This document shows positions 5,983-48,802 of a stretch of 64,000 nt of DNA, one piece after another. Origin of the DNA: Fistulifera solaris. Lineage: Eukaryota. The notes under the pieces are model-generated. The model worked only from the letters and a program-made list of their open reading frames with translations, was not told the origin of the DNA and ran no database searches. The stretch spans positions 1-64,000 of the forward strand of contig AP026155.1 of assembly GCA_030295235.1 (NCBI GenBank), read 5' to 3'. Positions within the stretch are counted from its first letter, which is position 1; each line of letters opens with the position of its first letter. Position numbers and translations under genes: made by a program.

Positions 5983-6944
5983 CTAGACTTCTTGAGGAGC
6001 CGCTTCTTTCAGGGGTGCCGGGGCTGTCGTTGTGGTCAACCGAATACCAACAAGACGCTGCTCTGCATCTACCTTGACAACTTCGGCTGTCACACCTGGT
6101 CCAAAGAACGTTTCGTACTTCTTGACACGGCGTTCGTCCGCCCACATCTTGTACGGGGTATCCAACGATTGCCAAACCATGGTGAAGGCCAAGTCAACAC
6201 CATTTTCAGCGACCTCTTCACGCAACTCTCGCAATTGAGGGTACGCTTTACCAGGAACGACGAGGCCAAGCTTTTTTACGGTAGTATCTAGATGCGCTTC
6301 GTCTCCGTAGCGGTGGCGTGTGACGTCCTGCTTAATCTTTCTCATAGTTTCCGTAGCTTTCTTTTCAAACAAGCCCTCCGCTTTAGGTTGCGTAAATGCC
6401 GGCACTGGCTCAATTTCGGCATACTTTAATGCAGACCCCGCCAAGAAGATCGGAATTCCGTATACGAAACCCAAACCACTCATGGACCCTTCATCTTGCG
6501 CCAAATATTCGGCAAACGATGCGATGGTAATGAGCAAACCCAATCCGATGACGGAGTTTCCCAATGAAAATCCACGAATCTCGAAAGGAGGTTCTCCTGC
6601 ATTATTCACACCGGCGCCGCCGATCATGGCTGATTTAGGGGCATTCCAACCGCTATCCTGTGTTGATAAAAAGGGACAACATGAGTTAAAATGAAAGCAC
6701 GGCAAAAGGTGACACAATGTGAGAAATCTCATCGAGCACAATCAACGGTGATGTAAATTCTAAGCGTTCCTCAACTCACCTCCTCAGACATGTGCAATGG
6801 TCTGGTATTACTGTTGTAAGCACGTCTTATCGATTTCTCCTGCGTGAACGAAGTCGTCGACGAAGTAGGGCTGAGGACAAAGGCGCTTGTCGTTGAGTAG
6901 AACAACGCACTTGTAAGGGTTGCAACAAATACTTTCGAATGCAT
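5983..6944 (-). CDS. APE1: DUF2854 thylakoid membrane protein (APE1-like); exons 6944-6780 and 6657-5983
   Basis: GFVYGIPIFLAGSALKYAEIEPV, DVTRHRYGDEAHLD and YETFFGPGV motifs; exon 1 encodes a signal plus TSAFVL plastid-targeting motif; GT-AG intron 6779-6658 keeps the frame. Confidence 0.85.
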
Positions 6945-7271
6945 GATAAATAAAACTACAATTGGTCGATTGAGGAAAGAGGTTGTAGGAAGTAAATAAT
7001 GAAAACAGGAAGTCTCCAATCATGCAACAACAACTTATTTCAGTTGACGCAGACAAAACGAGGCCGCGTTGGAGTTTGAAGTCATCTTGAGAGTTTACGT
7101 CGGAACGAACACATCATCGATCTCGCGTAGCTCGTATCTCGTCCGCGCGTGACGTAGCCACACTCGCTCGTGACTCAAGGCTCCCTGACTAATACAAAAG
7201 AAAGTACGTCCGTCCTTTACACGTTTTGCATTCGGTTGGTTTATCGATCGATCGTTCTCCCAAAAAATTTT

Positions 7272-10200
7272 GGCAGTTGAACCATGCTGGTGGACCTTTT
7301 TGGACCGTACGTCGTCCGATTTACATAGGAAAACGACATGCCAGAGCGACATTGTTATCCAAATACTTTTTGGATCCAGCCAATCAGATGGCTTACATCC
7401 AAAAAGTCGAGCCAATCCAGCCAATCACAAGCGTCCCATCCAGAAGAGACTTTTAGCCGTCTGCTAGTTGTCCGCGTTGAGCAATCGATAGCCTACCGGT
7501 ACTCACTATACAGTAAATCGAGGTTTAACCTTACGCACTCTCAATGTAGCTGGCCAAAAGAATGCATCCGTTCCAATTTTGGGCGCCGATAATTATTTCT
7601 GCAAAAGAATGACATCGGCACAAACGAGAATAACTTCGCCTCATCTTTTCGATTGCAAAGTTATCACACCTAAAAGAATGCCAGGAACATCAAAAAGAGG
7701 TCGGGCCCCGACAAAGTCCAGCGAAGTCGCCGTCAAACAAAAAGAATAGTTTGAAAAAGATGGAGCTCGAAAAAGCAAAGAGAAAAGAGCAAGCTAGTGT
7801 GGATGCCACGTCCGCTGTAATGCACTCTTTTTAGGCATAAAGGTTCCCTAAAAGGCCTCCCTGTAGAAGAAGAAGTCTGTGAAGATGTTGACATGACTGG
7901 CGAAGAACTAGAAAAGCAATTTACTGAGCGTCTTGTGATCGATGATACAAGAGGTCAACCTGGCGGACGTTGACGCCGACGATGATGACGACGACGCTCT
8001 TGGCTTCCGAGGGAAGACGGGGACTATAATGAGGATAGCAATGAGTTGAACGACGGGCGGCATCATGTCAAATTATCTTTCTAAGATTCAGACGAGGCTG
8101 AGAGATGAAACGCGTTGTAACTTCAAAAAGGGAGACGAGAAAATTCCTGATGATCAGAAATGGCTTCTGAAAATGCTTGAGGAGCACCAGTTCTCTCTTC
8201 CGTGGCAGCTTGCTTCAACACTGTGCAACAAGCTTGGGATAAATTGGGCTCCTTCTACGTACTATTGCACTGTACATGTGTGGTTAACAGATGTCCAATT
8301 CAACGAAATGCCACCTTGCGGAGAATGCAAGTCAAATGCCCATGTTGGTCGTCATGCATTTGATTCCAGTTATCCTGGGCGTCGTGATATCTGGCTTAAA
8401 AAAGGACGCAGTACGTTATGACAATGCGGTATTGTTGTTCGAGGTGCAAGAGCGGAGAAAAGTCCTACACGCTTTCAGCGGATACAATCTGAAAAGTTTG
8501 GAATCGATGCCGCTTAGTCGAAAGATTTGCTTCCCGGCTCTCTTAACGCACAAAAGCGGGGTCACTATGGAGCTAGCTCGACTCATTCGCTCACTTGTAT
8601 CGAAAAATGTGCTGTCAATTCTCTTGCTGCAATGATTATGAAATGCACCAGCTTGAGCACAAGCAGCAAATGTTGCTCTATGAGTCGGAGGTAGCAGCTT
8701 CTCGCTTCTACCCGAACAGATGACAATAAAGCACCATTGTTTAGCGACTTCAATGATCGGAAAGGATACAATGGCCGATTGATTACCGGAAATATATTCA
8801 GAGCATCTATCAACGCCTCATTCACTCCTTCCGGAACTGGCTGACGACACGAAGAAGAGGGATTCTGAGATGATTAAGATTGACGCATCTTATAAATTTA
8901 CAAAGCGCTTTGAAACGGGTTGGCGGCAGAAAGTGTTTGATGGTCTAGTCACAGTGATGAATGAATTTAAAGAGATTCGCTCGCATTTTGTAATCTTTGG
9001 AGAGAGCCACGACCAGATGCGCGGCCGCCGCTACAAGCCATGAAGGCAACAATGGATTCAAATGGCCAAGCCGGCCCCAAACTTGCTTTCACTGACAGCC
9101 CCAAGCGAGACGACATGCTTATTTCCGTTTTCGATTCCTTGGCAGTAACTCAAGAGGCTTATAATACCATTGCAGAGGAGGAAAATAAGCAGCTAGGAGA
9201 CAAGTCGGAACCCACTGAGTTGCTCAAGTCAGCATGGCAACGCTCTTCTCACGACCGTCGCTTCCAATCTGTTCGATTGTGCATCATAATTATTCAGTTA
9301 TTGAGGCTGATAAGGACATTACAATGTTTGCAGGAACCGCCATGGATCTGATGAAAGACAGGCAGGCAGAAAAGCGTATCATGGCGCTTTGATCTTGAAT
9401 GGCCGGTCCACTTCAATAACAACGGTCGCATCGAAGGACAGGGAAAAGTTGCGACCATACAATTGTCATATCACACCTGTCAGGGCAACCTGGATAACGA
9501 CATTTGTACTACAGTCATTCGCTCAACAGACGACAACTAAATTGAATGCAACACTTGTGCTGCCTACTGAGCGAAGACTCTATCCGATTTGTGGGTGTGA
9601 ATGTTGCTGGTGATGTGACCAAGCTAAAAAAAGATTTCGCCAACATGAACAATGTGTCTGTAAACAAGATTGACTTGAGGGTCATGGCAAGGCCGTGGTG
9701 TTGTGCCACGGAATGGATCGATAGTCTTGTTGCACTAGTCGAAGCCCAGCTGAAGGAATCGATGGAAAAGGATCAGAGAATGTCCGATTGGTCGGGTCCA
9801 CTACAACCAAAACAGCTGGACTATGCCGCCTTAGATGCAATCAAAAGTCTGCAAGTATACGATTCTCTCGATAAACTGCCAGATTTAACAAGGGAACTTC
9901 AGCGCAAGGAGATTTTAGCTGGAACTAAGGTCACTATTGTTGCAAGTAAGGGCAGTAAGGCATCCATTCCGACGCCCGGTGCAGAGGGGGAGATACTTTC
10001 TCAAAAACAGATCTGGACAGCACCAAAAACATTTACATTCGTTGAAGGTCAAGCAAACCAGGCGGTCAATTTGTACTTGTTCGAATGAAAAGGTTCTGGC
10101 TACCGGGCTTGATAATGGATGGTTATAGGAAAGGCAGGAAAGGTGTCTCGCTGGGAGATTTTGTAAAAACCTTTGCAGATGACGATTTCGTGATGATGGT

Positions 10201-12358
10201 TAATCTTTCACAGTTGGCGCTCTCAGCACCAGCAGCAATCATCGTCCAGCTCATCAGACGCTATCAACCCTAATCCGGTGATCCATACTACAGAGCTCAA
10301 CAAGGTGAACGCGAGTATAGTGAACGCCGACAACTAAAACAGCTACAACGACCGGTTTCGCAGAAGATGATTTGTTTACCCACGATTACATATTTGAACA
10401 CGAGAATGAAGAAGATATCAGCCCTGATCCTGATTCTACGGATGCTTTTGACGACTTCTCAGAACTTACCCCTGCTAAAATCCGAGAAATCGATGATATC
10501 ATAAGGCGCTGCCGGTCGATAAGATGGGCCCTCTTACTGCACAGGACGGAGAAAAATACCTGGATCCGCCGCCTAAATCGATACCGATTTGCTACTCCGC
10601 TGTGCTTGGAGACATTATACACGCAATTATGCGAATAAAGGTTCCAGCAAAGCACGAATGCCGCAAAGCTTACTCTGCTGCGCTTGTACGAGCATTTTTA
10701 GAATGGGATCCTGAACGGTTAAAAGAGGTCAAAGAAGCATTGGTCAAATTAGGTATTTCCGAAAAGGAGATAGAGGCACGATTGTACTACAACATACAGT
10801 GGTTCGCAGCACGTGTTGAGCGACGTAGCCCTTCCTCCGCATCTCCTTTACTGGCGTGTTTGTGCCGCTCTATCATACTTTGGCAACAAAATCGACAGCG
10901 TGTCCAAGAAGCCTCTCTTCGGAAAAAAATGAATGGAACAAGGCCAAAAGTCTGCTCTCCGACATACGGAAAGGATATTTTTCCGACCCACCCGGTGTAT
11001 CATTCTACCGATATAGAGTGGATGGTCGGGGACAAATAATTCGCGACCGGAAAGGATTTGCGCTTCTTACGTGTACCAGAGGAACAAACGATGTCGAGAA
11101 CGAACATAGGAATCTCCTTGGGCCGATCGGAAACTCGCCAGTGGGACTTGAAATGATGGACTGTCTTTTGACCGACATATCGCCTCCGAAGAAACATGAT
11201 TTCAGCCCGAAAGTACCGACTGAACTTTCCAGACATTCGACATTTTGATCCCTGGTTAGTAGACCTAATTACAGATTACGGTAGAAGAGGGGCGAAAGTA
11301 CTATTGTACCCAAACTGGATAAACTCATGTGATCTTGCAGAGACCCCGAACGTTTTGGTTTCGTCGGTCTTCCCAGATCAGAGCTGACCGACGCGAATAA
11401 ATGAACGCTGCAACAATTGAGAACCTTGAGAATTGTGTTATCGAGAAACGCTCTTCGAAAGACATGCAGTATATAGCCAAATGCATTGGAACAAAATTGC
11501 CGTATCAACCTTTTTCGACTGCCGAGGAAATATTGATGTACGCACAACTGCGAATCAATGTAACCGAAAATCAACGAATCAAGCCAGATGACCCAAACTT
11601 TGAGCTAGCTATTTGTCATGCCATTTTACCCCGTGGTCGATGGAATTCGGATTTTTCCAAAGACGCCCCATTTATGTTCGGCAAATGGAAAAGAGATATC
11701 TTGAGAGGAAACGGATAGGCTCAGCCGTGAGAAGTATGTACAGTGCATTGGACGCACTCAGTAGTCTGAATGAAGCCACATCTACCATAGCAATCAACGC
11801 TTTGTCCGCCTCAAACGCACTGCAGAGCGGTGAACATATCGAAAAGGACGACAGCACCCAGATGCGAAAACTCTGCCCTCCTATCTTGCTGCCGGTGACC
11901 AATCTTCGGCGTGAGTGGAAACATGATACAACGGCGTGAATCTGTACCAATCGCACAGAAAAGGCAAAGCCGACCCCCAAAACATGGCCGGAGTGTGGAT
12001 AAGAAACCACGTCAAGGAAGACATTGCAAAACTTGTAAGCGTCCACTTGCCCAATGCCCTGCTGCCGCAGTAAGTAAGTCAGCTAAAAGGGTGTGCACTT
12101 ACATCGAAAACACAGAAGCACAACAAATATAATCATTAATGGCTGCATGTTAAATAAAAATATCATTTCAATTTTCATTGACGTATTCCTAACACTGGCG
12201 GCATTCCAATGATGCAAATCGTGGACTTTACTGAAGGTCCCGTAGGGTCTGCATAGAGACTACTATCTCGGAAAGGGATAAAGCATTTTTGCGTCTAGTG
12301 CTCGCCCGCTCGCGAAGCAATAAAATATCAAATGGTCCACCAGCATGGTTCAACTGCC
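7272..12358 (+). mobile_element. TIR DNA transposon, copy 1 (~5.09 kb), Mutator-like DDE transposase with embedded 3'-5' exonuclease
   Basis: Perfect 25-bp TIRs GGCAGTTGAACCATGCTGGTGGACC (7272-7296) and its reverse complement (12334-12358); flanked by AAAATTTT (7264-7271) and AAATTTT (12359-12365). Confidence 0.92.
7609..12132 (+). CDS. Transposase-exonuclease fusion, copy 1 (multiple frameshifts as assembled)
   Basis: Fragments carry CGECK..CSRC, IKIDASYKFTKRL, AFTDSP, DLEW..VAGD..YAALDA, GDIIH, RGTNDVENEH and a C-terminal CKTC..C..C cluster. Confidence 0.8.
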
Positions 12359-12365
12359 AAATTTT

Positions 12366-15300
12366 GGCAGTTGAACCATGCTGGTGGACCTTTTGGACCG
12401 TACGTCGTCCGATTTACATAGGAAAACGACATGCCAGAGCGACATTGCCATCCAAATACTTTTTGGATCCAGCCAATCAGATGGCTTACATCCAAAAAGT
12501 CGAGCCAATCCAGCCAATCACAAGCGTCCCATCCAGAAGAGACTTTTAGCCGTCTGCTAGTTGTCCGCGTTGAGCAATCGATAGCCTACCGGTACTCACT
12601 ATACAGTAAATCGAGGTTTAACCTTACGCACTCTCAATGTAGCTGGCCAAAAGAATGCATCCGTTCCAATTTTTGGCCGATAATTATTTCTGCAAAAGAA
12701 TGACATCGGCACAAACGAGAATAACTTCGTCTCATCTTTTCGATTGCAAAGTTATCACACGAAAAGAATGCCAGGAACATCAAAAAGAGGTCGGGGCCCC
12801 CGACAAAGTCCAGCGAAGTCGCTCGTCAAACAAAAAAGAATAGTTTGAAAAAGATGGAGCTCGAAAAAGCAAAGAGAAAAGAGCAAGCTAGTGTGGATGC
12901 CACGTCCGCTGTAATGCACTCTTTTTTAGGCATAAAGGTTCCCGAAAAGGCCGCCCCTGTAGAAGAAGAAGTCTGTGAAGATGTTGACATGACTGGCGAA
13001 GAACTAGAAAAGCAATTTACTGAGCCGTCTTGTGATCGATGATACAAGAGGTCAACCTGGCGACGTTGACGCCGACGATGATGACGACGACGCTCTTGGC
13101 TTCCGAGGAAGACGGGGACTATAATGAGGATAGCAATGAGTTGAACGACGGGCGGCATCATGTCAAATTATCTTTCTAAGATTCAGACGAGGCTGAGAGA
13201 TGAAACGCGTTGTAACTTCAAAAAGGGAGACGAGAAAATTCCTGATGATCAGAAATGGCTTCTGAAAATGCTTGAGGAGCACCAGTTCTCTCTTCCGTGG
13301 CAGCTTGCTTCAACACTGTGCAACAAGCTTGGGATAAATTGGGCTCCTTCTGCGTACTATTGCACTGTACATGTGTGGTTAACAGATGTCCAATTCAACG
13401 AAATGCCACCTTGCGGAGAATGCAAGTCAAATGCCCATGTTGGTCGTCATGCATTTGATTCCAGTTATCCTGGGCCGTGATATCTGGCTTAAAAAAGGAC
13501 GAGTAATGCTATGACAATGCGGTATTGTTGTTCGAGGTGCAAGAGCGGAGAAAAGTCCTACACGCTTTCGCGGATACAATCTGAAAAGTTTGGAATCGAT
13601 GCCGCTTAGTCGAAAGATTTGCTTCCCGGCTCTCTTAACGCACAAAAGCGGGGTCACTATGGAGCTAGCTCGACTCATTCGCTCACTTGTATCGAAAAAT
13701 GTGCGTTCGAATTCTCTTGCTGCAATGATTGCGGAAATGCACCAGCTTGAGCACAAGCAGCAAATGTTGCTCTATGAGTCGGAGGTAGCAGCTTCTCGCT
13801 TCTACCCGAACAGATGACAATAAAGCACCATTGTTTAGCGACTTCAATGATCGGAAAGGATACAATGGCCGATTGATTACCGGGAAATATATTCAGAGCA
13901 TCTATCAACGCCTCATTCACTCCTTCCGGGAACTGGCTGACGCCGACACGAAGAAGAGGGATTCTGAGATGATTAAGATTGACGCATCTTATAAATTTAC
14001 AAAGCGTTTGAAACGGGTTGGCGGCGAGAAAGTGTTTGATGGTCTAGTCACAGTGATGAATGAATTTAAAGAGATTCGTTCGCATTTTGTAATCTTTGGA
14101 GAGCCACGACCAGATGCGGCCGCCGCTACAAGCCATGAAGGCAACAATGGATTCAAATGGCCAAGCCGGCCCCAAACTTGCTTTCACTGACAGCCCCAAG
14201 CGAGACGCCGACATGCTTATTTCCGCTTTCGATTCCTTGGCAGTAACTCAAGAGGCTTATAATACCATTGCAGAGGAGGAAAATAAGCAGCTAGGAGACA
14301 AGTCGGAACCCACTGAGTTGCTCAAGTCAGCATGGCAACGTCTTCTACGACCGTCGCCCAATCTGTTCGATTGTGCATCATAATTATTCAGTTATTGAGG
14401 CTGATAAGGACATTACAATGTTTGCAGGAACCGCCATGGATCTGATGAAAGACAGGCAGGCAGAAAAGCGTATCATGGCGCTTGATCTTGAATGGCCGGT
14501 CCACTTCAATAACAACGGTCGCATCGAAGGACAGGGAAAAGTTGCGACCATACAATTGTCATATCACACCTGTCAGGGCAACCTGGATAACGACATTTGT
14601 ACTACAGTCATTCGCGTTCAACAGACGACAACTAAATTGAATGCAACACTTGTGCGCTCTACTGAGCGAAGACTCTATCCGATTTGTGGGTGTGAATGTT
14701 GCTGGTGATGTGACCAAGCTAAAAAAAGATTTCGCCAACATGAACAATGTGTCTGTAAACAAGATTGACTTGAGGGTCATGGCAAGGCCGTGGTGTTGTG
14801 CCACGGAATGGATCGTATAGTCTTGTTGCACTAGTCGGAAGCCCAGCTGAAGGAATCGATGGAAAAGGATCAGAGAATGTCCGATTGGTCGGGTCCACTA
14901 CAACCAAAACAGCTGGACTATGCCGCCTTAGATGCAATCAAAAGTCTGCAAGTATACGATTCTCTCGATAAACTGCCAGATTTAACAAGGGAACTTCAGC
15001 GCAAGGAGATTTTAGCTGGAACTAAGGTCACTATTGTTGCAAGTAAGGGCAGTAAGGCATCCATTCCGACGCCCGGTGCAGAGGGGGGAGATACTTTCTC
15101 AAAAACAGATCTGGACAGCACCAAAAACATTTACATTCGTTGAAGGTCAAGCAAACCAGGCGGTCAATTTGTACTTGTTCGAATTAAAAGGTTCTGGCTA
15201 CCGGGCTTGATAATGGATGGTTATAGGAAAGGCAGGAAAGGTGTCTCGCTGGGAGATTTTGTAAAAACCTTTGCAGATGACGATTTCGTGATGATGGTTA

Positions 15301-17450
15301 ATCTTTCACAGTTGCGCTCTCAGCACCAGCAGCAATCATCGTCCAGCTCATCAGACGCTATCAACCCGAATCCGGTGATCCATACTACAGAGCTCAACAA
15401 GGTGAACGCGAGTATAGTGAACGCCGACAACTTAAAACAGCTACAACGACCGGTTTCGCGAGAAGATGATTTGTTTACCCACGATTACATATTTGAACAC
15501 GAGAATGAAGAAGATATCAGCCCTGATCCTGATTCTACGGATGCTTTTGACGACTTCTCAGAACTTACCCCTGCTAAAATCCGAGAAATCGATGATATCA
15601 TAAGGCGCGGTCGATAAGATGGGCCCTCTTACTGCACAGGACGGAGAAAAATACCTGGATCCGCCGCCTAAATCGATACCGATTTGCTACTCCGCTGTGC
15701 TTGGAGACATTATACACGCAATTATGCGAATAAAGGTTCCAGCAAAGCACGAATGCCGCAAAGCTTACTCTGCTGCGCTTGTACGAGCATTTTTAGAATG
15801 GGATCCTGAACGGTTAAAAGAGGTCAAAGAAGCATTGGTCAAATTAGGTATTTCCGAAAAGGAGATAGAGGCACGATTGTACTACAACATACAGTGGTTC
15901 GCAGCACGTGTTGAGCGACGAGCCCTTCCTCCGCATCTCCTTTACTGGCGTGTTTGTGCCGTTCTATCATACTTTGGCAACAAAATCGACAGCGTGTCCA
16001 AGAAGCCTCTCTTCGGAAAAAATGAATGGAACAAGGCCAAAAGTCTGCTCTCCGACATACGGAAAGGATATTTTTCCGACCCACCCGGTGTATCATTCTA
16101 CCGATATAGAGTGGATGGTCGGGGACAAATAATTCAGCGAATCGAAAGGATTTGCGCTTCTTACGTGTACCAGAGGAACAAACGATGTCGAGAACGAACA
16201 TAGGAATCTCCTTGGGCCGATCGGAAACTCGCCAGTGGGACTTGAAATGATGGACTGTCTTTTGACCGATATACGCCTCCGAAGAAACATGATTTCAGCC
16301 CGAAAGTACCGACTGAACTTTCCAGACATTCGACATTTTGATCCCTGGTTAGTAGACGAATTACAGATTACGGTAGAAGAGGGGCGCAAAGTACTATTGT
16401 ACCCAAACTGGATAAACTCATGTGATCTTGCAGAGACCCCGAACGTTTTGGTTTCGCCGGTCTTCCCAGATCAGAGCTGACCGACGCGAATAAATGAACG
16501 CGCTGCAACAATTGAGAACCTTGAGAATTGTGTTATCGAGAAACGCCTTTCGAAAGACATGCAGTATATAGCCAAATGCATTGGAACAAAATTGCCGTAT
16601 CAACCTTTTTCGACTGCCGAGGAAATATTGATGTACGCACAACTGCGAATCAATGTAACCGAAAATCAACGAATCAAGCCAGATGACCCAAACTTTGAGC
16701 TAGCTATTTGTCATGCCATTTTACCCCGTGGTCGATGGAATTCGGATTTTTCCAAAGACGCCCATTTATGTTCGGCAAATGGAAAAGAGATATCTTGAGA
16801 GGAAACGGATAGGCTCAGCCGTGAGAAGTATGTACAGTGCATTGGACGCACTCAGTAGTCTGAATGAAGCCACATCTACCATAGCAATCAACGCTTTGTC
16901 CGCCTCAAACGCACTGCAGAGCGGTGAACATATCGAAAAGGACGACAGCACCCAGATGCGAAAACTCTGCCCTCCTATCTTGCTGCCGAGACCAATCTTC
17001 GGCGTGAGTGGAAACATGATACAACGGCGTGAATCTGTACCAATCGCACAGAAAAGGCAAAGCCGACCCCCAAAACGTGGCCGGAGTGTGGATAAGAAAC
17101 CACGTCAAGGAAGACATTGCAAAACTTGTAAGCTCCACTTGCCCAATGCCCTGCTGCCGCAGTAAGTAAGTCAGCTAAAAGGGTGTGCACTTACATCGAA
17201 AACACAGAAGCACAACAAATATAATCATTAATGGCTGCATGTTAAATAAAAATATCATTTCAATTTTCATTGACGTATTCCTAACACTGGCGGCATTCCA
17301 ATGATGCAAATCGTGGACTTTACTGAAGGTCCCGTAGGGTCTGCATAGAGACTACTATCTCGGAAAGGGATAAAGCATTTTTGCGTTAGTGCTCGCTCCG
17401 CTCGAAAGCAATAAAATATCCAAATGGTCCACCAGCATGGTTCAACTGCC
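12366..17450 (+). mobile_element. TIR DNA transposon, copy 2 (~5.09 kb), direct tandem repeat of copy 1
   Basis: Same TIRs at 12366-12390 and 17426-17450, followed by C then AAAATTTT (17452-17459); near-identical to copy 1 apart from small indels. Confidence 0.92.
12700..17224 (+). CDS. Transposase-exonuclease fusion, copy 2 (multiple frameshifts as assembled)
   Basis: Same motifs as copy 1: D at ~13981, D at ~14189, exonuclease ~14473-14960, DxxH at ~15706, E at ~16190. Confidence 0.8.
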
Positions 17451-17619
17451 CAAAATTTTGCAACAAAAACGTTTCCTCCTCGACGCATTTTCACTTCATA
17501 GTATCGCAAGAGAAACACTCCCTCTTCATCTCTTTTTTCGTGGAAACGCATCATGAACAGATTACAATCATTACTAAAAACAGGTGACCGGAAAACGGCA
17601 AAGAGTAGATAGAAGGAAG

Positions 17620-18683
17620 ATGAAATTCCGACAACAATATGATTTTAGTTCTGTTCTCCTACTTTGCCTCATCTTGACGAATCTTTCGTCGGCAAACGTA
17701 TTTAATACGACAAGTCGACTCCGCGGGACGTCTACTCCTGAATCTTCTTTTATCACCACTGTCGAGCACCCCTTCTCGCTTTCTTGTGGGACGCATCGTA
17801 GCTCTTTGGATGATGAAGAAGACGATGCCGATCTTATCAGCTACATTCATTCTCGAGAAAGGCAGTTGAATCTGGAACAAGTTACGATTCCCGTGTGCTT
17901 CCATATTCTGACAGATGACAACGGTGTGAATGATCTTTCTTCCGAGCAGCTCCAAAATCAGTTGGACGTTCTCAATCGCGCATACAGTTCGGCTTCGTGT
18001 TGCGATTCTACGATGGAATGGTGTAGTACTCAATCTTGTTCTGTCGAAACAGGATTCCGCTTTGCATGGGCGCAAATGGAGGCATCAAGACAAAATGTAA
18101 TTCAAGGTGCAACAGTATCACACACTTCGGATGCTTGCATCATTGCCCACAAAAAGCGAAACTGGACGAGGTTCTTGTTTTCTGGGATCCTCGTCTCCGT
18201 CAAATGAAACGGAGACTGCGTAAAGGTGATGCGACAACATTGAATGTCTATTGGACAGATTTTATGATTCTGAAAATTGCCGGATACTCAACGTTCCCCT
18301 CCACATATTGGCGTAAGCCCAAATTGGATGGTGTTGTCATGCGTGTTGGAGTATGTGTTGGTGGATCAATTACTGAGTACTCAAAAGGAGCCATGCTGGC
18401 TCACGAAGTAGGTCACTGGCTAGGCTTATATCATACGTTCGAAGAGGGTTGCTCGGAGCGATCGGATAGAATCGATGATACACCTCGCGAACTTGAAGCA
18501 TTTCGAGGTTGTGGTCAAATAGATGGTTTCCCGCTCAATCGCGATTCTTGTCCCAACGATGAAGGAAAAGACCCCATTCACAATTACATGGATTATGCTT
18601 ATGACGAATGCAAGTTTGAATTTACACAGGGTCAGGTGTGGCGCATGCAAGCATCCTATGAACGATACCGAAAGGGGAAATAG
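17620..18683 (+). CDS. Secreted zinc metalloprotease, M43 (pappalysin/ulilysin-like)
   Basis: Signal peptide, propeptide CGT, IPVCFHIL, HEVGHWLGLYHTF and Met-turn DPIHNYMDY; one frameshift in a T run near 18180. Confidence 0.9.
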
Positions 18684-46049: not shown

Positions 46050-48320
46050 TTAACGGCGCTTTCCGCTCTTGTGTGCGCCGGTCGCACTAAGATGAGCTGT
46101 ACTGGCTACATTTGAAGCCAAATTTTTGGGCTGTTGCTCTCGTGCGGCGACATCTAGTTTAGCCAAATCTTTCTCTGGAATCGCGCCAGTCCCTTGATGT
46201 TTGTTCAATGTCGGTGCGTTATTTTTCTTTCGACGGCGATTCACAGCACGATCGTATTTAGGAAGCCATCGCTCTGGATCGGGCTGCGTTGGACGTTCAG
46301 GATTATACAAACCCTTCTTCTGCAGTTGGTCCAAATGTTGCGCGCGGAGTCGGGCACGTCGTTTCAACACAGATTCATGTGACTTTTTGGAAGCGTTTGC
46401 CGTCGTGTTAGATTGCAAAACGACGGCATCGTTTGTATCTACCTTGTTTGCATGATTCCAACGCTGTGTACTCTTCTCAAGTGCTTCCATAGAGTGCAGA
46501 TCATAACCACGACCGTTGTCGTCTGTTTTCAAGCTGCGAGCCATTTCCTCCCAAAGATTTATTGCTCTGTCTGGATCTACATGAGTTAACGCTTGCACCA
46601 ACCGAGCCTGGATCATTTGCTTTATGTCGTGATCTTTGACATGAGACATGGCCATTTCGTAACATTCAATCGCTGACTGATAATTTCCCTGATTCGAATG
46701 TAAGTTCCCTTGCATCAGCGCCGCCTCTTTGATTGGCACTTTAACTTTCGTTCGAGTTTGGTCCGATTCATCACTCTGCTGTACAGCTATCATGGTAGCT
46801 TGTACAGCTGGCTTCGTCCGCAACGATGGCGGCCAATCGGCATACAATTCGTCCAAAGAAGGCTGCTGTCGGAACTGTTCTGTCGCCGCAGCCTGGTGTA
46901 ATTGTAAATACACCAACATATGATCACGGAATGGACTCTCCGCAATCGTCATGAGCGCAAAATCAAGGGCACGGACGTTGCGTAGTCCTACGCTCGTCGC
47001 AGAAGCCTTCTTTTTGTTTTTGATGTTGTCTTTCTCTCTGATATTAGGGGACTCGGGACAATACAACAGCAGAACTGCCAAACGAATTTCCCACCACAAC
47101 AAGACGGGATCATTTAGCATCGGATCATCCTTTTCAGGCGGTTTCTCTGGTGCCATGGTTTCCCAAAGCTCTTGAACCGCTGCGCGACAGTCATCGTATT
47201 GCTTTCGATGAAGGAACGTCACGCACCGGTTGTAATCTAACAAACGGTCTTGCAGCAATGTCCATTGGATCTTGTCGTTCATGTTTTGCGGCAGATCATC
47301 CAAAGTATCGTATTTGTCGTGATAGTACTGCAATATCACCCACGGGTCTTTCGTATTGCAAATCTTGGTCAGTGAAGCCGTTTCTGATGTTTGGAGTCGC
47401 ATCCCTTTCATACTCGTACTTGTCGTATTGCTGTTAAGGTGCCAAAACTGCTGACTCCATTCTAGTTGATTATGACAGTTCCTATCTTGTGCCCGACGGG
47501 AATGCAGGAATTGTTTTGCTTCGCGTGCGTTAGAACGATGTAACAATTGATATGTGGCCACATTGTAACGCAAATCAAGTATCGTTTCGGATTCTTGCTG
47601 CAGCTGTTGGTCAACAACGTCAAGCAGTTCAGTAAATATGGTGTCCTCTTCCCGTGTGACCTTATTGTTCTTGCTCTCTGGGCAATACGGCAAGGAGTAT
47701 TGATTGAGAAAGGCGGCCATGTAATTGACATAGATTTCATGGACATCGTCATCATCATCGTTGTTGCCGTTTCCGACTTTTTCTAGTTGCTCTAAAATAG
47801 ACACATATACTTCCATAGCGCCTTCGTAATCCTGCAAATGATAATACGATTGCGCTTGCAAGTGCATAGCCGCGAGGGCGTAGAGCTGTTTCAGTTCGGC
47901 CAAGTCCAAGAAATCCAAAACTTGATGGTATTCTTGCAGCTGATAGAGTGCATATGCCCGCATGACGATGCTTCGTTGATTTGGGGAGGAAAACAGAACA
48001 TTCGAAGTCGCTTCTACTACTTGAGCGTGCGCCTTTTTATCCCCTTGTTGCAGCAAAAGCTGCAGGCGGACTTGTTGTAATGCTTCTTTCAGTGTTTCTT
48101 CGTCAGGCGTATCATTGCTGTCACTGGGCTCAGCACTACTTTCTTTCTTCGCTGTTTTAGGTAGAATGCTCGCTAACCAGGCTTCATGATGTTGAATGGT
48201 TCTTTGACATTGTTGCTGTATAAGTATCCGATGATTCGATGAGGATGATTCGTCGCGCTCTTTCGTCAATTTTTGCACAAGTTCTTTCAATTCTCGCACT
48301 AAATCTTGATGTCTGATCAT
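46050..48320 (-). CDS. SRP72: Signal recognition particle subunit SRP72
   Basis: TPR-like helices (RAYALYQL, LQAQSYYHLQDY) and C-terminal PDPERWLPKYDR..HQG RNA-binding motif. Confidence 0.85.
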   Translation of the reverse strand: MIRHQDLVRELKELVQKLTKERDESSSSNHRILIQQQCQRTIQHHEAWLASILPKTAKKESSAEPSDSNDTPDEETLKEALQQVRLQLLLQQGDKKAHAQVVEATSNVLFSSPNQRSIVMRAYALYQLQEYHQVLDFLDLAELKQLYALAAMHLQAQSYYHLQDYEGAMEVYVSILEQLEKVGNGNNDDDDDVHEIYVNYMAAFLNQYSLPYCPESKNNKVTREEDTIFTELLDVVDQQLQQESETILDLRYNVATYQLLHRSNAREAKQFLHSRRAQDRNCHNQLEWSQQFWHLNSNTTSTSMKGMRLQTSETASLTKICNTKDPWVILQYYHDKYDTLDDLPQNMNDKIQWTLLQDRLLDYNRCVTFLHRKQYDDCRAAVQELWETMAPEKPPEKDDPMLNDPVLLWWEIRLAVLLLYCPESPNIREKDNIKNKKKASATSVGLRNVRALDFALMTIAESPFRDHMLVYLQLHQAAATEQFRQQPSLDELYADWPPSLRTKPAVQATMIAVQQSDESDQTRTKVKVPIKEAALMQGNLHSNQGNYQSAIECYEMAMSHVKDHDIKQMIQARLVQALTHVDPDRAINLWEEMARSLKTDDNGRGYDLHSMEALEKSTQRWNHANKVDTNDAVVLQSNTTANASKKSHESVLKRRARLRAQHLDQLQKKGLYNPERPTQPDPERWLPKYDRAVNRRRKKNNAPTLNKHQGTGAIPEKDLAKLDVAAREQQPKNLASNVASTAHLSATGAHKSGKRR

Positions 48321-48802
48321 TTGAAGGATGATTTAGTTACTCGAATGTAATTGAATGGAAATAAAAGGGATTGAAAGGAACTAAATACAATGAGAGAATA
48401 GACAGGATGAAAGGTTAAAATGCAACACGAGAGCTAAAATATATCCCAGTACCCCTCAGAGGGTGCGTTCTGTCTGGCTTTCGCTCCAATAGGGTTCTGA
48501 GTCTTTCTGACGTCATGAGTAAAAGAGGATGCGTGTCCCGTCAACTCTTTCCTTTACAGTACGGTACCGGTACCAGGTTCCTGGTACCGCACCGGTACCG
48601 TACCTGGTAGTCTCTTCACATTAAATTTTTGCTGTGGTCAAGTTTGAACGAACGACATACGCACCTTCGCTTTCTGTGCCTCGATAAACACAGCGTCAAC
48701 ATGACGCAACCGCAGCACCAGTTGCAGTAAATAGGTCGGCTTTTTAAAGTTTCCCTTTCCATTATCTGACTCTGTTTCTTTCCTCTTTTATTTACTAAAA
48801 TC

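Follow-up and report, generated by a model that had tools for sequence, protein, structure and literature searches.

In the window (the whole stretch of DNA analysed, 64 kb in length), two direct repeats spaced ~5.09 kb apart together occupied positions 7272–17450, in an intergenic spot ~6.9 kb from a telomere, near a diatom chromosome end. These repeats, copy 1 and copy 2, were head-to-tail units of one element, with the following limits, ends and flanks:

7264–7271, no strand: 8-mer AAAATTTT on the left flank, a candidate for a target-site duplication; a read-derived contig matches 7000–7297 with 0 differences
7272–12358, forward strand: copy 1 of the element, 5087 bp, delimited by repeat, TIR and copy-to-copy comparison
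7272–7296, forward strand: left TIR of copy 1, 25 bp, 5'-GGC...
12334–12358, reverse strand: right TIR of copy 1, reverse complement of the 25-mer
12359–12365, no strand: spacer AAATTTT, 7 bp, between the copies (head-to-tail junction)
12366–17450, forward strand: copy 2 of the element, 5085 bp, with TIRs at 12366–12390 and 17426–17450, the ORF from 12768 to ~17225 and an in-frame TGA at 16478–16480
17451–17459, no strand: right flank CAAAATTTT, which is AAAATTTT after one C; a read-derived contig matches 17421–17489 with 0 differences

The 25-mer GGCAGTTGAACCATGCTGGTGGACC was present on the forward strand at 7272 and 12366 and as its reverse complement at 12334–12358 and 17426–17450, with no further occurrence in the 64-kb window in either orientation. 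Both copies displayed these TIRs at their tips, as an earlier note on this DNA had described for a 5.09-kb unit: they were perfect over 25 bp and, past one mismatch, had 6–7 more matching bases (~32 bp in total). As to the 8-bp target-site duplication of that note, the 8-mer AAAATTTT was found at both outer edges of the pair, but the right one was separated from the TIR by a single C, and the spacer between the copies, which equalled the left flank, was 7 bp. As for an RNA-gene target, Rfam models gave nothing in the window at gathering score and nothing in the two flanks at E ≤ 1, and tRNA genes were likewise not found.

Both outer junctions of the pair were reproduced by the read-derived contigs without difference. 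Two read contigs (1760 and 3277 nt; depth ~50) covered copy 2 in one clean path, with 43 gaps and 16 differing letters relative to it, and loose ends of read contigs began exactly at 7272 and 17450 and continued into other A/T-rich flanks. The element is mobile, with its other insertion sites starting at the TIR tips.

Each unit carried one intron-poor gene for a protein of ~1,480 aa, and the following features were assigned in copy 1:

7678–12132, forward strand: transposase ORF, ~1,480 codons, starting MPGTSKRGR and ending after ...TEAQQI, split into many frames by small indels
8311–8560, forward strand: Cys4 zinc-finger/DUF6729 region (PPCGECK 8311–8331, RYCCSRC 8427–8447, FPALLTHKSG 8531–8560)
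8873–9102, forward strand: RNase H-like core, first half (first Asp in IKIDASYKF 8873–8899, second Asp in AFTDSP 9085–9102)
9258–9890, forward strand: DEDDy 3'-5' exonuclease domain, limits approximate (DLEW 9391–9402, GVNVAGD 9594–9614, RMSDWS 9777–9794, YAALDA 9822–9839)
9930–10230, forward strand: beta-rich SH3-like module after the exonuclease, within the same insertion, limits approximate
10608–11107, forward strand: core, second half (DxxH in GDIIH 10608–10622, a helical insertion domain, and the catalytic Glu in RGTNDVENEH 11078–11107)
11385–11387, forward strand: in-frame TGA, common to copy 2, coinciding with the end of database protein P0001
12022–12110, forward strand: C-terminal Cys cluster HCKTCK...C...C

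Copies 1 and 2 differed by 27 substitutions and 55 small indels, and no open stretch was longer than 180 aa in the first copy or 199 aa in the second. The fragment 15604–16200 was 99% identical to F. solaris FisN_19Lh006 (P0001), annotated in the database simply as "3'-5' exonuclease"; with P0002, an intact relative of 1472 aa, the fragment shared 70% identity. Residues 10–1471 of P0002 were colinear with each copy, with no match in the window outside them, so one ORF of ~4.45 kb could be reconstructed, in agreement with the single ~4.5-kb ORF proposed earlier; every peptide motif named with that proposal was located in one or both copies and assigned coordinates. Long intact ORFs elsewhere in the window indicated that the indel noise was local to the repeat, and the frameshifts are probably assembly errors rather than decay. 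The in-frame TGA lay ~280 codons upstream of the ORF end; because it was shared by the two copies, the autonomy claimed for the element is uncertain, and a full transposase may be lacking unless this TGA is bypassed.

The predicted protein has a disordered, acidic stretch at its N-terminus, followed by a DNA-binding region of Cys4 zinc-finger/DUF6729 type, the RNase H-like DDE core, and a C-terminal region that contains a Cys cluster. The core is split between the strand and helix after the second Asp and the strand bearing DxxH; the ~450 aa inserted there are made up of a DEDDy 3'-5' exonuclease of WRN type, a small module with a beta-barrel, and a disordered linker, the last being acidic/Ser-rich and coming after the SH3-like module. 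In P0002, the N-terminal finger read C208-x2-C211-x35-C247-x2-C250 and stood 143 aa before D393, and the C-terminal cluster (C1445/C1448/C1455/C1468) read Cys4, being at least 90% conserved in 13 sequences, among which no conserved His was identified. DUF6729 (Pfam PF20499) scored 22.8 bits in P0001 and 15.9 bits in P0002, both below the 27-bit gathering cut-off, though all of the 32 full-length relatives matched at E ≤ 0.01 and 29 of them reached the cut-off, in keeping with a DUF6729-type N-terminus.

An exhaustive search retrieved a large eukaryotic family (2654 relatives at E ≤ 1e-3, of which 270 passed E ≤ 1e-30), whose named members included Agaricales and other basidiomycetes. Among the 150 relatives listed, 61 spanned both catalytic blocks, and in 61/61 the exonuclease lay in between, not as the separate gene that the earlier note had entertained. 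Nine residues (D445, D544, E546, D618, Y689, D693, D951, H954, and E1112) were invariant in 45 full-length members with 22–57% identity, and D375 was at least 90% conserved in the same members; at the level of sequence, both the transposase and the exonuclease catalytic residue sets are conserved.

The AF2 model (pLDDT 79.8, pTM 0.67) matched two solved structures: (i) residues 500–708 matched mouse WRN exonuclease 2e6l_A with Z 24.8 (VIA), rmsd 1.9, and 183 residues aligned (Foldseek TM 0.87 to 2e6l), accompanied by a PDB sequence match to WRN of 6.3e-08 and by Pfam DNA_pol_A_exo1 at E 1.2e-10, with a score of 42 bits where the cut-off is 23.6 bits; and (ii) residues 172–1155 matched ISCth4 transposase 6xg8_A with Z 11.9, rmsd 4.9, and 320/401 residues aligned, the match crossing the insertion and being the sole transposase among the 50 structural matches listed. 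In the model, the two core halves pack together and superpose on ISCth4 as one domain with the exonuclease inserted, which favors the RNase H fold that had been assumed and suggests that the DDE core is related in fold to IS256-family transposases. The main claims of the earlier note, namely a TIR DNA transposon with one large DDE/DxxH transposase and a complete WRN/RNase D-type DEDDy exonuclease inside its catalytic core, were corroborated. The domain shared its fold, the invariant DxE/D/YxxxD, and Pfam DNA_pol_A_exo1 with WRN (PDB 2e6l, 2fbt), Nibbler/Mut-7, RNase D, and Rrp6; unlike these, it occurs inserted into a transposase rather than as a free-standing or helicase-linked enzyme.

In nine independent metagenomic relatives from short reads, head-to-tail TIR–6 bp–TIR junctions (GCC-N6-GGC) were present, and one contig closed on itself with a 4284-bp unit; in a shuffled-locus control, 18 of 20 shuffles had no junction and two had one. 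In relatives L022 and L057, each with one outer flank, the 6-bp spacer equalled the left flank. Since nine relatives share the junction, the arrangement is typical of the family. The alternative that the locus has a single copy, with noisy assembly of long reads from a multicopy repeat having produced both copy 2 and the 7-bp junction as artefacts, is possible though clearly the less probable reading. It would account for the confinement of indel noise to the repeat and for the finding that none of 8 of the 31 read-contig records bridged the copy 1/copy 2 junction; moreover, an element depth of ~50 against ~17–20 in the flank allows ~3 copies, yet at least three other flanks exist. It is opposed by the TIR/short spacer/TIR junctions of the nine relatives and by the tandem insertions published for Dada transposons (PMC3706591), and copy number is poorly gauged by contig depth. 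A genuine head-to-tail pair is preferred.

Dada was defined as a superfamily whose transposases combine DDE with DxxH and bear a CCCC finger at the N-terminus and another finger at the C-terminus, and which shows 6–7-bp target-site duplications and tandem insertions (Kojima and Jurka 2013, PMC3706591). As far as that published description goes, Dada families with defined termini are without TIRs and inserted at specific sites of snRNA or tRNA genes, the C-terminal finger is CCHC, and the Ectocarpus and Laccaria members, in which a DEDDy exonuclease separates the second D from DxxH, belong to exonuclease-bearing families not named after a target. The DxxH of this definition (GDIIH, with D951 and H954) and its DDE triad (D375, D445, and E1112) were both found in the family of the diatom element. 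The stretch very probably represents a head-to-tail pair of a 5.09-kb Dada-superfamily transposon of the exonuclease-bearing branch in a Fistulifera-like diatom, a membership that rests on architecture, motif spacing, and taxa as published, Dada being compared by description.

Compared to the described Dada-1_ES (Ectocarpus siliculosus) and Dada-1_LB and Dada-2_LB (Laccaria bicolor), the diatom element agreed in its DDE core and DxxH, in the Cys4 finger near the N-terminus, which lies about as far from the first Asp, and in having a Cys-rich finger at the C-terminus. Between the second Asp and DxxH it likewise had a DEDDy exonuclease with all catalytic residues, and its size was similar (protein of ~1,400–1,500 aa, element of ~4.7–5 kb); a stramenopile host was common to both, and the short candidate target duplication and the head-to-tail copies with a short spacer would correspond to the duplication-parted tandem insertions of those members. 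Spacing agreed as well with the published figures for Dada-U6_DR: the first and second Asp were 70 aa apart here and 68 aa there, and the finger C-x2-C-x35-C-x2-C had its counterpart in C389/C394/C429/C432, 135 aa before D567. In contrast to the exonuclease members as described, the diatom element had perfect 25-bp TIRs, few or no introns, an A/T-rich flank repeat of 7–8 bp rather than 6–7 bp, and a Cys4 rather than CCHC C-terminal cluster; an snRNA or tRNA gene target was not found, and other copies lay in unrelated A/T-rich flanks. Because the same architecture was described by Kojima and Jurka (2013), in Ectocarpus and Laccaria families that match closely, the novelty implied by calling the element poorly classified, with Sagan and MuDR as comparators, fails, a close match to a characterised family being what the earlier note had said would remove it. 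The element is instead a new diatom example of a known Dada design; its TIRs are clear, and a target in a small-RNA gene was not found.

There is only a slim chance that the element belongs to an undescribed superfamily or a MuDR/"Sagan"-related group, its Dada likeness being convergent or shared merely at the level of the C/DxxH clade. Such a placement draws on the comparison with Dada being one with a published description, on the TIRs, 7–8-bp flank repeat, missing RNA-gene target, and Cys4 C-terminal cluster that depart from end-defined Dada families, on the nearest solved transposase fold among the 50 listed being that of the IS256 family (prokaryotic kin of Mutator), and on a single weak ZSWIM1-3 RNaseH-like match, at E 0.0088, in the set of 32 relatives; a resemblance to PF20700 by language model (score 0.83) was taken as a lead only. 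Against it, a DEDDy exonuclease placed after the second D and ahead of DxxH has one published case, which in the description cited is Dada, with which both zinc-finger positions, the D–D spacing, protein length, tandem insertions, and hosts (stramenopile, Agaricales) also agree, and no Pfam MULE, Mutator, or Transposase_mut match was found in P0001 or P0002 (E ≤ 1) or in 32 relatives (E ≤ 0.01). "Sagan" was found in the literature just as a class name in genome repeat-annotation papers. A domesticated, immobile host gene, i.e. a transposase–exonuclease fusion recruited for repair, is barely conceivable: the conservation of both active sites over wide distances and the plain exonuclease label of the database would suit it, but not the perfect TIRs with flank duplication, the near-identical copies, the other insertion sites beginning exactly at TIR tips, the three different left contexts of one metagenomic family (L006, L007, and L009), or the TIR motif conserved in distant metagenomic relatives.

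For the exonuclease-bearing Dada transposon favored here, the transposase would bind the conserved TIR (GGC...CATGNTNGTGGA) and cleave at its tips, and the 3'-OH ends would be joined into a 6–8-bp staggered target, A/T-rich in the diatom. The tethered exonuclease may trim 3' ends or flaps made in cleavage or joining, by analogy with the proposal that the Dada exonuclease processes cleaved 3' ends (Kojima and Jurka, PMC3706591). A comparable recruitment of a DnaQ-like 3'-5' exonuclease by a C/DxxH-type transposon is described for KolobokD, whose authors propose 3'-end trimming of transposition intermediates (Kojima and Bao 2022, PMC9587614); by that account, the KolobokD enzyme is of DEDDh type (TREX/ERI1-like) and an accessory or terminal fusion, whereas the diatom DEDDy enzyme (WRN/RNase D-like) is embedded in the core. 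The predicted fold alone cannot tell whether the substrate is DNA or RNA, and the degradation of silencing RNAs suggested earlier found no support in the analysis.

Among solved transposases, ISCth4 gave the best fold match in the 50 listed, and it also shared the C/DxxH, a helical insertion domain that precedes the catalytic Glu, short TIRs, and head-to-tail junctions (6 bp in the family, 7 bp in the window); it differed in being 401 aa long and without exonuclease. ISCth4 is described as favoring A/T-rich 8-bp targets and as making TIR–TIR junctions with spacers of 6–8 bp, 6 bp working best (PDB 6xg8; Kosek et al., PMC7780238). Because this nearest fold belongs to an enzyme that transposes by copy-out/paste-in, with such spacers and targets, and because of the nine GCC-N6-GGC junctions, the self-closing contig, and the window junction equal to the left flank, it may be conjectured, as a rather improbable reading, that exonuclease-bearing Dada passes through an IS256-like TIR–spacer–TIR junction (circle or head-to-tail dimer) rather than plain cut-and-paste. 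Among eukaryotic elements of this clade, copy-out/paste-in is not known to occur. What is newly seen here is the TIR–6 bp–TIR junction in metagenomic relatives, as in IS256-type circles or dimers; if the conjecture were true, it would imply a copy-out/paste-in-like path in eukaryotes, and the embedded exonuclease could act on a nicked or figure-eight intermediate.

The region 7272-17450 was very probably a Dada transposon (Dada being the superfamily of Kojima and Jurka 2013, PMC3706591), and it was taken up by two direct repeats spaced ~5.09 kb apart, namely copy 1 (7272-12358) and copy 2 (12366-17450), arranged head to tail. The ends of the copies and the genes flanking the pair were as follows.

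Ends of the two copies and flanking genes
7272, start of the left TIR of copy 1: 25-mer GGCAGTTGAACCATGCTGGTGGACC
12366, start of the left TIR of copy 2: the same 25-mer
12334-12358, right TIR of copy 1: reverse complement of GGCAGTTGAACCATGCTGGTGGACC
17426-17450, right TIR of copy 2: the same reverse complement
5986-6741, minus strand: DUF2854 gene, flanking the transposon pair on one side
18027-18680: M43 peptidase gene, flanking the pair on the other side

These positions bore out, in both copies, the claim of the earlier note that the TIRs were perfect over 25 bp and extendable to ~32 bp with a mismatch: the repeat reached ~32 bp past one mismatch, and the 25-mer was absent elsewhere in the 64-kb window. 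The flank left of copy 1 ended with AAAATTTT, copy 1 and copy 2 were spaced by AAATTTT, and the flank right of copy 2 began with CAAAATTTT. Four right flanks were seen; in two of them (window 17451 and a further copy from X1, a public sequencing run kept as contigs), one additional C separated the tip of the right TIR from the A/T-rich repeat. The window began at a telomere (~62 copies of the CCCTAA/TTAGGG-type hexamer at 1-380), and thus the transposon pair was subtelomeric, ~6.9 kb from the chromosome end; past the telomere repeat, the window was unremarkable eukaryotic DNA, dense in genes and with long intact ORFs. Rfam and ARAGORN, applied in search of the target site, gave no match to a small-RNA target gene. 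A target resembling the right end of the element itself, as proposed for Dada-U6, was also considered and rejected, since the left flanks of the window and of two metagenomic loci (L057 and L022) shared 5-8 of 23 positions with the right TIR, which is chance level. The 5' subterminal region (7365-7440 and 12458-12535), upstream of the ORF, displayed an imperfect 43-nt palindrome and three CCAATCA motifs, which may serve as a promoter or in the binding of the transposase.

The sequence comparison of copy 1 and copy 2 identified 27 substitutions and 55 indels of 1-4 bases, and the longest open stretches were 180 and 199 aa, respectively. Small-indel noise was observed only in the repeated element, the neighbouring ORFs being long and intact (e.g., 46053-48332, 760 aa); such a pattern is what a long-read assembly typically shows when polishing has missed its repeats. 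Run X1 contained 61% of the sampled words, and the element was spanned as one path by two of its contigs (1760 and 3277 nt, depth ~50). Their alignment to copy 2 showed 43 gaps and 16 letter differences, and at these differences they often matched the letter of copy 1; both outer junctions were reproduced in X1 with 0 differences. The frameshifts were judged to be errors left in a repeat that polishing had not corrected, and the genomic copies to be nearly identical. Loose X1 contig ends started exactly at 7272 or stopped exactly at 17450 and ran into other A/T-rich flanks, which placed the element at no fewer than three further sites and marked the TIRs as its true ends. Among the 8 of 31 X1 contig records listed, none bridged the internal junction (12359-12365), and thus the tandem arrangement in the diatom was a candidate one; that the second copy was an assembly artefact, a question independent of what the element itself is, was possible and somewhat unlikely.

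The 199-aa fragment shared 99% identity with the F. solaris database protein FisN_19Lh006 (P0001, 1187 aa) and 70% identity with P0002, an intact 1472-aa relative from an environmental assembly. Residues 10-1471 of P0002 were colinear with each copy, with no other alignment in the window, which confirmed a single reconstructable ORF of ~4.5 kb (7678-12132 in copy 1); all peptide motifs quoted in the earlier note were likewise located. The two copies had in common an in-frame TGA (11385-11387 and 16478-16480), ~280 codons before the ORF end: P0001 ended exactly at this TGA, and the 280 codons past it remained homologous to the P0002 C-terminus. Three readings of the shared TGA are conceivable: a nonsense mutation of recent origin that every copy carries, a very small intron, or read-through. 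Pfam gave a match to DNA_pol_A_exo1 (E 1.2e-10) and, below the cut-off in P0001, one to DUF6729.

The AlphaFold2 model of P0001 (pLDDT 79.8, pTM 0.67) displayed the following modules.

Modules of P0001 predicted by AlphaFold2 (residues)
171-267: zinc-finger beta region
371-444 (as listed): strands carrying D375 and D445
500-711: exonuclease
724-822 (window ~9930-10230): beta-rich module
826-901: disordered linker
948-954: short strand followed by DxxH
968-1069: helical domain
1109-1122: helix with E1112

Model residues 500-708 were superposed on WRN exonuclease (a DEDDy 3'-5' exonuclease) with a Foldseek TM of 0.87 and a VIA-align Z of 24.8 (rmsd 1.9, 183 residues aligned). The sole transposase among the best 50 fold matches listed was ISCth4 (IS256 family, 6xg8_A), which aligned with the model range 172-1155 over 320 of 401 residues (Z 11.9, rmsd 4.9). 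This single ISCth4 superposition covered both core halves across the exonuclease insertion and was taken as evidence that the two halves would form a single RNase H-like domain from which the exonuclease loops out. The beta-rich module sat inside the same insertion and was confidently predicted (pLDDT 86.3 when folded alone); its best fold matches were Tudor, Agenet, KOW or PWWP-like small barrels, all weak at Z <=5.7, under the level that the fold-search tool calls meaningful.

Word-indexed protein searches recovered 2, 2 and 4 proteins only, and the family was seen only by exhaustive search, which gave 2654 relatives at E<=1e-3 and 270 at E<=1e-30. Both catalytic blocks were spanned by 61 of the 150 relatives listed; all 61 had the exonuclease between the blocks, and 31 had the beta-rich module after it. 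Among 32 full-length relatives, Pfam matched DUF6729 in all (29 above cut-off) and the exonuclease in 31 (28 above cut-off). Across 45 full-length members (22-57% identity), the second Asp, the DxxH, the Glu and all five DEDDy residues were invariant, and the first Asp was conserved at >=90%; both active sites are kept under selection. Named members came from the basidiomycetes Agrocybe, Arthromyces, Mrakia, Sporobolomyces and Rhodosporidiobolus and from a chytrid; Laccaria, Ectocarpus and Danio were absent among the 7 representatives with an organism name (20 looked up). The ESM Atlas returned only clusters without a name, plus one Mutator-like match at 0.83, a lead only, and the literature search found no papers on DUF6729. 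The exonuclease-bearing branch is large, and its members occur both in diatom-like marine eukaryotes and in fungi.

The ends of relatives were sought in metagenomic loci with a closer alignment (A2), the first alignment (A1) being too diverse. Several of 74 loci carried ends with the tip and inner motif of the diatom element, GGC...CATGNTNGTGGA; an exact-seed search found clear TIRs only in L057 and partial ones in L026 and L022, and motif and junction scans revealed more ends than this search. L006, L007 and L009 represented one family in three different left contexts. The junction scan (GCC-N5-8-GGC with complementary arms on either side) contributed to the detection of head-to-tail junctions (right TIR ...GCC, 6 bp, left TIR GGC...) in nine independent metagenomic relatives.

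Junction spacers in metagenomic loci
L004: AGGCAT (scan)
L009: GCTTTT (scan)
L021: CGCCAC (scan)
L022: TACCCA (scan)
L026: CAAAGG (scan)
L047: GGGCGG (scan)
L057: CCTTTT (scan)
L064: GGAAAA (scan)
L037: CCTCGA (by eye)

All spacers in the scan were 6 bp; four further scan rows were left out, being the same GC-rich hairpin in L006-L009, not counted as a junction. Of 20 locus shuffles run as a control, 18 gave 0 junctions and 2 gave one junction. In L022 and L057 the spacer was identical to the 6 bases that flanked the first copy on its left, and the L004 contig had a 98-bp self-overlap giving a closed 4284-bp unit. ISCth4 yields junction spacers of 6-8 bp, with 6 bp preferred, and uses A/T-rich 8-mer targets (PMC7780238), and the spacer length in TIR-spacer-TIR circles usually equals the TSD length (PMC9587614). 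An IS256-like route via TIR-spacer-TIR junctions, the boldest reading considered, was unlikely. Dada tandem insertions separated by a TSD have been described (PMC3706591), and the same data fit that published account, namely re-insertion into the duplicated target.

Dada was defined by (i) a DDE transposase with DxxH, (ii) zinc fingers of CCCC type at the N-terminus and of CCHC type at the C-terminus, and (iii) 6-7-bp TSDs with insertion into snRNA or tRNA genes, and no TIRs were reported for the U6 and U1 families (PMC3706591). Dada-U6_DR agreed with the diatom element in finger spacing and D-D spacing. In the Dada elements of Laccaria bicolor and Ectocarpus siliculosus, the stretch from the second D to DxxH houses a DEDDy exonuclease whose four catalytic residues are all present (PMC3706591); the novelty implied earlier for an exonuclease inside a transposase core thus did not stand. 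The C/DxxH superfamilies include Dada, hAT, P, MuDR and Kolobok, and KolobokD carries a DEDDh exonuclease (Kojima and Bao 2022, PMC9587614). That the element formed a separate superfamily was very unlikely, and that a unit bounded by such TIRs was a host gene was scarcely credible. The diatom element is a new member whose central feature was already in print; the literature search found no papers on Dada in diatoms.

As a Dada transposon, the element would move by a transposase that uses the conserved TIRs as its recognition sites and inserts with a short stagger, and the built-in exonuclease may trim 3' ends or flaps. Knowledge of transposon kinds is unchanged, an exonuclease in a transposase core having been published since 2013. 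The value is modest: (i) an exonuclease-bearing Dada element with sharp ends, its 25-bp TIR sharing tip and inner motif with distant relatives, (ii) the size and host spread of the branch, with selection on both active sites, and (iii) a core tied to the IS256 family by predicted structure. Literature searches found no bench studies of how Dada elements move, and the recurrent TIR-6 bp-TIR junctions provide a concrete testable handle on that movement.
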